Source: Escherichia phage ECO95 1-6-1
Strand: one strand, 5' to 3'
DNA: 1,999 bases
Sequence record: OR845587.1
Both the position numbers and the translations under genes were made by a program. Shown piece after piece: positions 726 through 1,139 of the stretch. The notes beneath the pieces are model-generated. The model was not told the DNA's origin, did not search any database, and worked only from the letters and a program-made list of their open reading frames with translations. Numbering within the stretch: position 1 is the stretch's first letter; the number at the start of each line of letters is the position of its first letter.

Positions 726-1139
726 TTACTCACCAACAGCCCACCAACTGTAATTCATCGATACTGTGGAGCTGGTTGATGCAGTTCTGTAAGCGGAATT
801 AAAACCGGTTAGTGTTGGACCTTCTGCAGTCATCACGAATCCCCGTCCAGCGCCTAAAGGCGCACCACCATCACCAGAATGGGTAAGCATGGCGCAGTCC
901 ACTTTTTTAGGAAAAGGGATGCTGAATGTAATTCTCATTGTTTGCGTCGATAATGTCGGCGTAATCGCACCACGACCATATTGCAGGATTTTCCCGTTGG
1001 GTAATTTCATCCATCCATCACCACTGGCAAAAGAGGTCATGTCCGGTATCTGATTTTCCCCTGTTCCTACATTCCGTTTTGCCGCTTCTCCCAAACCAAC
1101 GTTTATGAAAATGCAGAGATAACGGGCAACTGGCATCAT
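726..1139 (-). CDS. Alternative tail fibre C-terminal variable segment (S'v/H'v-like receptor-binding cassette), probably expressed only after inversion fuses it to the constant fibre gene part
   Basis: 137-aa minus-strand ORF; stop TAA at complement of 726-728, 20 nt upstream of the tfa' start (fibre then chaperone order). Contains a GW-KLPNGKI-QYG-type motif and a Gly/Ser/Thr-rich tail typical of fibre tips. The crossover site lies inside its 5' end (codons ~10-18), and the ATG at 1139 has its GGAG immediately abutting it, which is poor spacing for an independent start. The minus frame is closed just upstream by a TAA (complement of 1149-1151). Confidence 0.6.
1086..1111. other. Site-specific recombination crossover site for the invertase (cix/gix/hix-like), right-hand boundary of the invertible segment
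   Basis: TTCTCCCAAACC-AA-CGTTTATGAAAA is a 12+2+12 imperfect palindrome (7/12 half-site positions symmetric) with the TTC...AAACC / GGTTT...GAA architecture of Hin/Gin/Cin/Pin sites; central dinucleotide AA at 1098-1099. It lies 56 bp upstream of the invertase start and inside the 5' end of the silent fibre segment, as gixR/cix do relative to gin/cin. Confidence 0.65.

Follow-up and report, generated by a model that had tools for sequence, protein, structure and literature searches.

Gene content and genomic setting of the locus

The window, by which we mean the whole 1999-bp stretch of DNA analysed here, contains fibre chaperone genes, a fibre tip, a DNA invertase and the start of a tail sheath gene, as identified from the list of open reading frames and Pfam searches (Table 1). 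Two Caudo_TAP genes face each other, and the 3' ends of these convergent tfa genes overlap by 29 bp. Counterparts of the minus-strand tfa gene in related genomes carry the annotation tail fiber assembly protein, and the product of the adjacent fibre segment carries a Gp53-like C-terminal receptor-binding domain.

Table 1. Coordinates, strand and supporting evidence of the features in the 1999-bp window
Feature	Position	Strand	Evidence
Expressed tail fibre assembly gene, 3' part, tfaE type	3..290	+	Pfam Caudo_TAP, E=1.3e-25; annotation of relatives
Tail fibre assembly (chaperone) gene of the silent cassette, non-expressed	262..705	-	Pfam Caudo_TAP, E=1.9e-31
Non-expressed fibre variable segment, 123 codons and stop, ending WWAVGE	726..1097	-	Pfam PF21882, E=6.6e-13
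26-bp Din-family crossover site, identical to pixR	1086..1111	none	Sequence and published table
ORF extension beyond the invertible segment, 13 codons and first base of the V codon	1100..1139	-	Doubtful coding status
Serine DNA invertase, Din (Hin/Gin/Cin/Pin) family, 197 aa	1167..1760	+	Pfam Resolvase, E=8e-53, and HTH_7, E=1.5e-12
Putative Fis-dependent recombinational enhancer	1185..1256	+	Homology only; within the 5' part of the invertase coding sequence
P2 FI-type tail sheath gene, start	1820..1999	+	Pfam Gp18_domIII_N; tail sheath protein in all relatives

The full-window matches, 93-97% identical, belong to Peduovirus (P2-like) phages and E. coli prophages. In relatives with this level of identity over the full window the P2 gene order V-W-J-I-H-G ... 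FI-FII-E-T-U-D is complete, and the order around the locus is V-W-J-I-H-tfa / tfa-tip / invertase / FI sheath, of which the window itself holds the tfa and FI ends. As judged from sequence similarity and gene order, the setting of the window is the tail region of a P2-like (Peduovirus) prophage.

The window is a mosaic: positions 266-1999 match the locus L007 at 99.6%, and positions 1-265 have the tfaE-type sequence of L002, L003 and the phage pro483. The joint of the mosaic falls at the 29-bp overlap of the convergent tfa genes. L007 and L008 are O157-type prophages, in which the expressed chaperone is of a different, 131-aa type. When positions 1-420 were compared by megablast with complete E. 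coli genomes, the best match was 96.7% identical. Exact look-ups with the 136-aa and 137-aa products of the ORF 726..1139, and an exact 102-nt scan across species-representative genomes, likewise yielded no genome with the window itself.

The crossover site

Positions 1086-1111 read TTCTCCCAAACCAACGTTTATGAAAA, that is, TTCTCCCAAACC AA CGTTTATGAAAA, two 12-bp half-sites flanking a central AA. The inner (segment-side) half-site occupies positions 1086-1097, the core AA positions 1098-1099, and the outer (invertase-side) half-site positions 1100-1111; the site lies 55 bp upstream of the invertase start. Alignment against the cix, gix, hix and pix sites, as suggested by the first-pass annotation, revealed identity at 26 of 26 positions to pixR of the E. 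coli element e14 (Table 3 in PMC3241671), and the same 26 bp are present in e14 of strain MG1655 (L012, 4606-4631). The inner half TTCTCCCAAACC is the same in pixL and pixR, and the outer half CGTTTATGAAAA is specific to pixR. Among the cores compared from the table in PMC3241671 and the Mu and P1 records, hixL, cixL, cixR, pixL and pixR have AA, the gix sites being the exception with GA.

The site has a single occurrence in the window, and among 200 dinucleotide-preserving shuffles there was no match to it at three or fewer mismatches. Against the symmetric Din consensus, in a simple score over 20 positions with a cut-off of at least 15/20, it scores 17/20. Since this score gave the two expected sites per complete locus and no others over about 250 kb, the match lies far beyond chance.

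On the minus strand the codons across the site read I (1112-1110) F I N V G L G E (1088-1086) in the frame of the ORF 726..1139, in agreement with the earlier proposal that the site is translated in frame as roughly IFINVGLGE. The same proposal left about 120 codons distal to the site; we count 119, or 123 when starting from the core. Positions 1086-1111 are a known pixR-type crossover site in a known type of switch at a known genomic position. Reading of the letters alone had thus correctly spotted a classical Din-family site, an assignment of little general significance. The exact anatomy is now fixed, with the core at 1098-1099, a shared inner half-site, and outer half-sites that depend on context.

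The fibre tip frame and its leader codons

The minus-strand ORF 726..1139 encodes 137 aa from an ATG at position 1139. Its first 13 codons (1100-1139) belong to the spacer in front of the invertase, beyond the invertible segment, and adjoin the invertase whichever way the segment is turned. What can be exchanged is the coding sequence from the core onwards and not from the ATG of the ORF, and the 136-137-aa 'gp53-like' ORF of this kind is a fibre tip with a spacer-encoded leader. A search of PDB sequences with the 123-aa tip gave only a marginal match, to a phage short tail fibre (E=0.007).

The coding status of the leader bears on an alternative reading, in which the ORF 726..1139 is not silent and a free 136-137-aa Gp53-like protein is made from its own ATG, just beyond the segment. 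The site would then fall within the gene of a second small protein that inversion can switch, with a role like the block of phage T2 adsorption claimed for StfE/StfE2 of e14; this would add to the inversion mechanism and not replace it. The start ATGATGCCA, preceded by GGAG, GGA or GGGG, is kept outside the site in 22 of 22 loci, always with an open frame; Mu has an in-frame ATG there, together with an annotated GeneMark CDS. For StfE2, an e14 chimera with its start at the same leader, production is reported to reduce T2 adsorption (PMC12529663, 2025), but the StfE2 of that study came from a plasmid. However, in the same 22 loci the codons between ATGATGCCA and the site vary almost only non-synonymously, as expected of a spacer, and this pattern suggests that 1100-1139 is spacer rather than coding sequence. 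The start is, moreover, only 27 bp from the divergent invertase start, a simple scan of positions 1000-1260 found no sigma-70-like promoter on either strand, and P1, at the corresponding position, carries a stop codon and lacks an ATG. Taken together, translation of the ORF from its own start seems unlikely. Slightly less probable still is the full form of this idea, in which the 'silent' ORF is translated from the conserved ATGATG as a free receptor-binding protein whose body is swapped by inversion, and which acts as a switchable adsorption-blocking or exclusion factor. If true, the adsorption-blocking role claimed for StfE2 of e14 would extend to very common P2-like prophages.

On the plus strand, the stretch from the crossover site to the invertase start contains, at positions 1128-1147, a terminator-like hairpin (AACTGG...CCGGTT) and then TTTTTATT. 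The hairpin overlaps the conserved TGGCATCAT. This element, which is also kept in Mu, reads on the opposite strand as ATGATGCCA, where the ORF extension starts. A 16-nt leader, TTTTATTCAGGG(T/G)GAT, is found in near-identical copies directly 5' of the minus-strand tfa start (710-725, minus strand) and of the invertase start (1147-1162, plus strand); as an inverted repeat, 421 nt apart, the two copies agree at 15 of 16 positions. The leader is kept in the P2-like loci and in the one e14-like locus (L017) searched, and was not found in MG1655 e14, Mu or P1. It could be a shared translation-initiation region or a joint between modules.

The invertase and its putative enhancer

The invertase ORF is full length and intact, with an alternative ATG at position 1161. 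For the invertase, too, the simple scan of positions 1000-1260 gave no sigma-70-like promoter. Its product is 86.7% identical to PinE, 78.8% to Gin and 78.0% to Cin. Residues 1-184 align with the structure of Gin (3UJ3, E=4e-94), and the catalytic Ser9, in the motif YVRVSTNDQ, aligns with the position mutated in the S9A crystal form of that entry.

The 5' end of the gene can be aligned gap-free to the stretch that the P1 record marks as enhancer (cin nt 19-90), with 55 of 72 positions identical, in a region that is coding. Two Fis-like 15-mers of the form G-N13-C are found at gene nt 22-36 and 71-85, corresponding to window positions 1188-1202 and 1237-1251. We infer a putative Fis-dependent enhancer at 1185-1256, an assignment kept at this level because coding constraint confounds the conservation.

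The partner site in the fibre gene of relatives

The partner site is absent from the window, whose first base falls inside the plus-strand tfa gene; by analogy with related loci it would be expected about 0.8 kb upstream of the window start. To locate it, the first-pass annotation had proposed a search for the reverse complement with a few mismatches. At three or fewer mismatches this search found only the site itself, both in the window and in one relative, and it misses the partner because five bases differ, all of them in the outer half. The partner was located by an inverted-repeat search and the consensus score, in relatives with 97-99.6% identical DNA.

In L002 and L003, which are 97.2% identical to the window over its whole length, the best inverted repeat pairs the site with TTCTCGCATACC TT GGTTTGGGAGAA, inside a long plus-strand fibre gene and 1.85-1.91 kb from the invertase-side site. 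The same partner, in frame in the long fibre gene and with a matching AA/TT core, was observed in more than 20 related loci. By the consensus score, every complete related locus examined (P2-like, e14-like, Mu, P1) has exactly two sites, inverted and with matching cores; in the P2-like and e14-like ones the inner half-site is invariant and the core is AA/TT. Three earlier expectations are borne out by these relatives: that the site at the start of a non-expressed fibre tip has a partner in the expressed fibre gene, that this partner is in frame in a long plus-strand ORF, and that the two cores agree.

It had further been predicted that the partner would encode the same or a similar peptide, which holds for one half of the site. 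The crossover frame is common to both sites. The fibre-side site encodes LLAYL-GLGE and the invertase-side site IFINV-GLGE, so that only GLGE, specified by the inner half GGTTTGGGAGAA, is shared; the outer halves, to which all differences between the two sites are confined, differ at 5 of 12 bases. The corresponding junction peptides are LENL-GLGE in e14, IQNL-GLQE in Mu and IQYL-GLRE in P1. The core TT supplies the second and third bases of a Leu (CTT) or Val (GTT) codon, and the first base of this codon stays with the outer flank; thus the expressed fibre always reads ...AYL-GLGE....

These data also bear on the possibility that the locus is a relic or a locked switch, its partner lost or mutated, or its invertase not made, and the segment frozen in the present orientation. 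We regard this as quite improbable. The partner is beyond the window, and decayed versions of the locus do exist, such as L001, with a rearranged right site and a short invertase annotation, and several loci with a disrupted fibre gene or a shortened call of the tip ORF. However, the invertase ORF here is intact and its protein is identical to the invertases of loci found in both orientations, the site is identical at all 26 positions to a site of proven function, and a partner with a matching core is kept in every complete related locus examined. With its invertase intact and a partner present in all complete relatives examined, this genome's copy very likely still has its own.

In L001 (phage 'P2' of E. 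coli O157:H43 T22, KC618326), positions 6085-6115 form a perfect 31-nt inverted repeat. The outer half of its invertase-side site is copied from the fibre constant side, and its invertase CDS is annotated with only 495 nt, which suggests a past rearrangement or conversion at this site.

Inversion isomers among related loci

The segment between the cores was found in both orientations among loci with identical sites and invertase. In pro483 the tip and chaperone of the window are present in the opposite orientation, the tip being fused in frame to the constant part of H to give a 399-aa fibre, and the other tip (GSALPVGVPVPWPS...) adjoins the invertase behind the same outer half-site. Homology with the window ends at position 1099. 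The tip segment of the window is likewise fused in frame to the fibre constant part in L006 and L023, and the fibre encoded in the flipped state is of full length, with 399 aa in both pro483 and L006 and 473 aa in L023. More generally, homology between the window and its inversion isomers breaks at 1099/1100. An invertase protein exactly as in the window occurs with both orientations (L006 and L009 versus L007 and L008).

The cleanest comparison is provided by AC-5 and AC-3, two sister O157:H7 isolates from one source. Both sites are at identical chromosome coordinates in the two genomes and the flanks are colinear, while the 1584 bp between the cores are inverted at 99.94% identity, a core-to-core flip and nothing else. 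On a larger scale, among 5426 complete E. coli genomes we observed the junction in the state of the window (invertase flank and this tip) in 276, and the flipped junction (fibre constant part and this tip) in 103. That the site could be a chance palindrome, or a mere operator of the invertase promoter with no role in recombination, as its place 55 bp upstream of the invertase start might allow, was rejected as having next to no probability, since no shuffled sequence matches it, it is identical to pixR, and the block inverted between AC-5 and AC-3 runs from core to core.

Published data agree with this picture. The e14 P segment inverts at TTGGTTTGGGAGAAGG / CCTTCTCCCAAACCAA, exactly these repeats (PMC12529663), and phase variation of e14 and of the P2-like prophages of EPEC has been measured by sequencing (PMC4272514). 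For this P2-like hotspot, a further study describes a DNA invertase, together with inversion of the genes beside it, as frequent (bioRxiv 10.1101/2024.10.15.618418).

The draft contig L010 begins at the counterpart of window position 1101, that is, at the crossover site. This contig end is consistent with mixed orientations in the sequenced culture that broke the assembly.

Proposed inversion switch

The above analysis makes it highly probable that 1086-1111 is the invertase-proximal site of a Gin/Pin-type inversion switch in a P2-like prophage. The analysis establishes what the site is and how it is framed, that relatives have a partner, that natural isomers break at the core, and to which family the invertase belongs. 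Dependence on Fis and the enhancer, the chemistry of strand exchange, an effect on host range, and the presence of the partner in this genome are inferred.

Strand-exchange chemistry and topology are those of the established Hin/Gin model. Following this model, invertase dimers would occupy the site at 1086-1111 and a partner in the long tail-fibre gene H, about 1.6-1.9 kb upstream, and both would then meet the enhancer, bound by Fis, in the 5' part of the invertase gene. Cleavage by the invertase at the central AA/TT would be staggered by 2 bp in each site, after which subunit rotation would exchange the half-sites and the DNA would be religated. As a result, a segment of 1.6-1.9 kb would be inverted, holding two opposed cassettes, each composed of a fibre tip and its assembly chaperone. 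Since the inner half-sites are identical (GGTTTGGGAGAA, GLGE) and both tips are in the same frame, either tip joins in frame as ...LLAYL-GLGE....

In the orientation of the window, the 123-codon Gp53-like tip and the chaperone 262..705 would face away from the late operon, and under the classical model this pair would not be expressed. After inversion, the silent tip and chaperone would replace the current pair, probably changing receptor specificity. The exchangeable unit is the tip together with its chaperone, and not, as first suggested, a receptor-binding tip by itself. It is compact, with a segment of 1.6-1.9 kb against 3.06 kb in Mu and 4.26 kb in P1.

The site marks the right boundary of an invertible host-range cassette. 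Such cassettes break assemblies and mislead gene callers.

Comparison with known inversion systems

The closest counterpart is the P segment of e14 with its invertase Pin. The invertase-proximal sites agree at 26 of 26 positions, with the same inner half-site and AA core, and the layout is the same, namely a tip, a tfa gene, an opposed tfa gene and tip, and finally the site, which precedes the start of the invertase by about 55 bp. The invertases are 86.7% identical, and a tfaE-type chaperone and a GSALPVGVPVPWPS-type tip occur in both systems. The main difference is in the host element, which here is a P2-like myovirus prophage (H-G ... FI sheath). In addition, the fibre-side half-site is CTCTCGAAAACC (LENL) in e14, but TTCTCGCATACC (LAYL) in the P2-like loci, and the invertase of the window, with 197 aa, has a C-terminus longer by 13 aa.

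The G segment of Mu, inverted by Gin at gixL and gixR, similarly has its site in frame at the boundary between the constant and variable parts of the fibre, where Mu reads ..NLGLQE and the P2-like fibre ..YLGLGE. The order Sc-[Sv U U' S'v]-invertase is equivalent, Gin is 78.8% identical, and the Mu enhancer is in the 5' end of the invertase gene, where the putative one of the window falls. Unlike the site described here, the gix sites have a GA/TC core and are identical to each other, so that the junction peptides of Mu are the same on both sides; the variable parts are also much longer, in a segment of 3.06 kb. In the C segment of P1 (Cin; cixL and cixR), the core is AA/TT, GGTATTGGATAA on the fibre side is similar to the P2-like half-site GGTATGCGAGAA, and the enhancer is annotated in the 5' end of cin. 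However, the invertase-side site of P1 overlaps the 3' end of cin and is not upstream of its start, and the segment has 4.26 kb.

The H segment of Salmonella shares the family of 26-bp sites and the AA core (hixL and hixR), and Hin is of the class of Fis- and enhancer-dependent serine invertases to which that of the window would belong. The difference is in what is flipped: Hin turns a promoter and not in-frame coding ends, and therefore no reading frame crosses hix.

Most similar in genomic position are the cassettes of P2-like prophages, in EPEC E2348/69, in pro483 and at the Z/fun-region invertase hotspot, which are located between the fibre assembly and sheath genes, have the same sites, and have been shown by sequencing to undergo phase variation. 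In nothing essential does the window depart from them, the only difference being the pair of tips and chaperones that is combined. We take the Fels-2 Fin system of Salmonella to be the same kind of P2-like invertible fibre cassette.

An identical 147-aa chaperone with its Gp53-like tip, as seen in the loci L016-L025, is recorded in more than 5000 index blocks of an assembly collection. This pair adjoins 184-aa Pin-type invertases in e14-like or Mu-baseplate-type prophages, and is also present in P2-like ones. The invertible cassette as a whole seems to travel between phages with unrelated backbones, and the pixR site and the tip/chaperone cassettes common to e14-like and P2-like prophages represent exchange of modules among unrelated phages.
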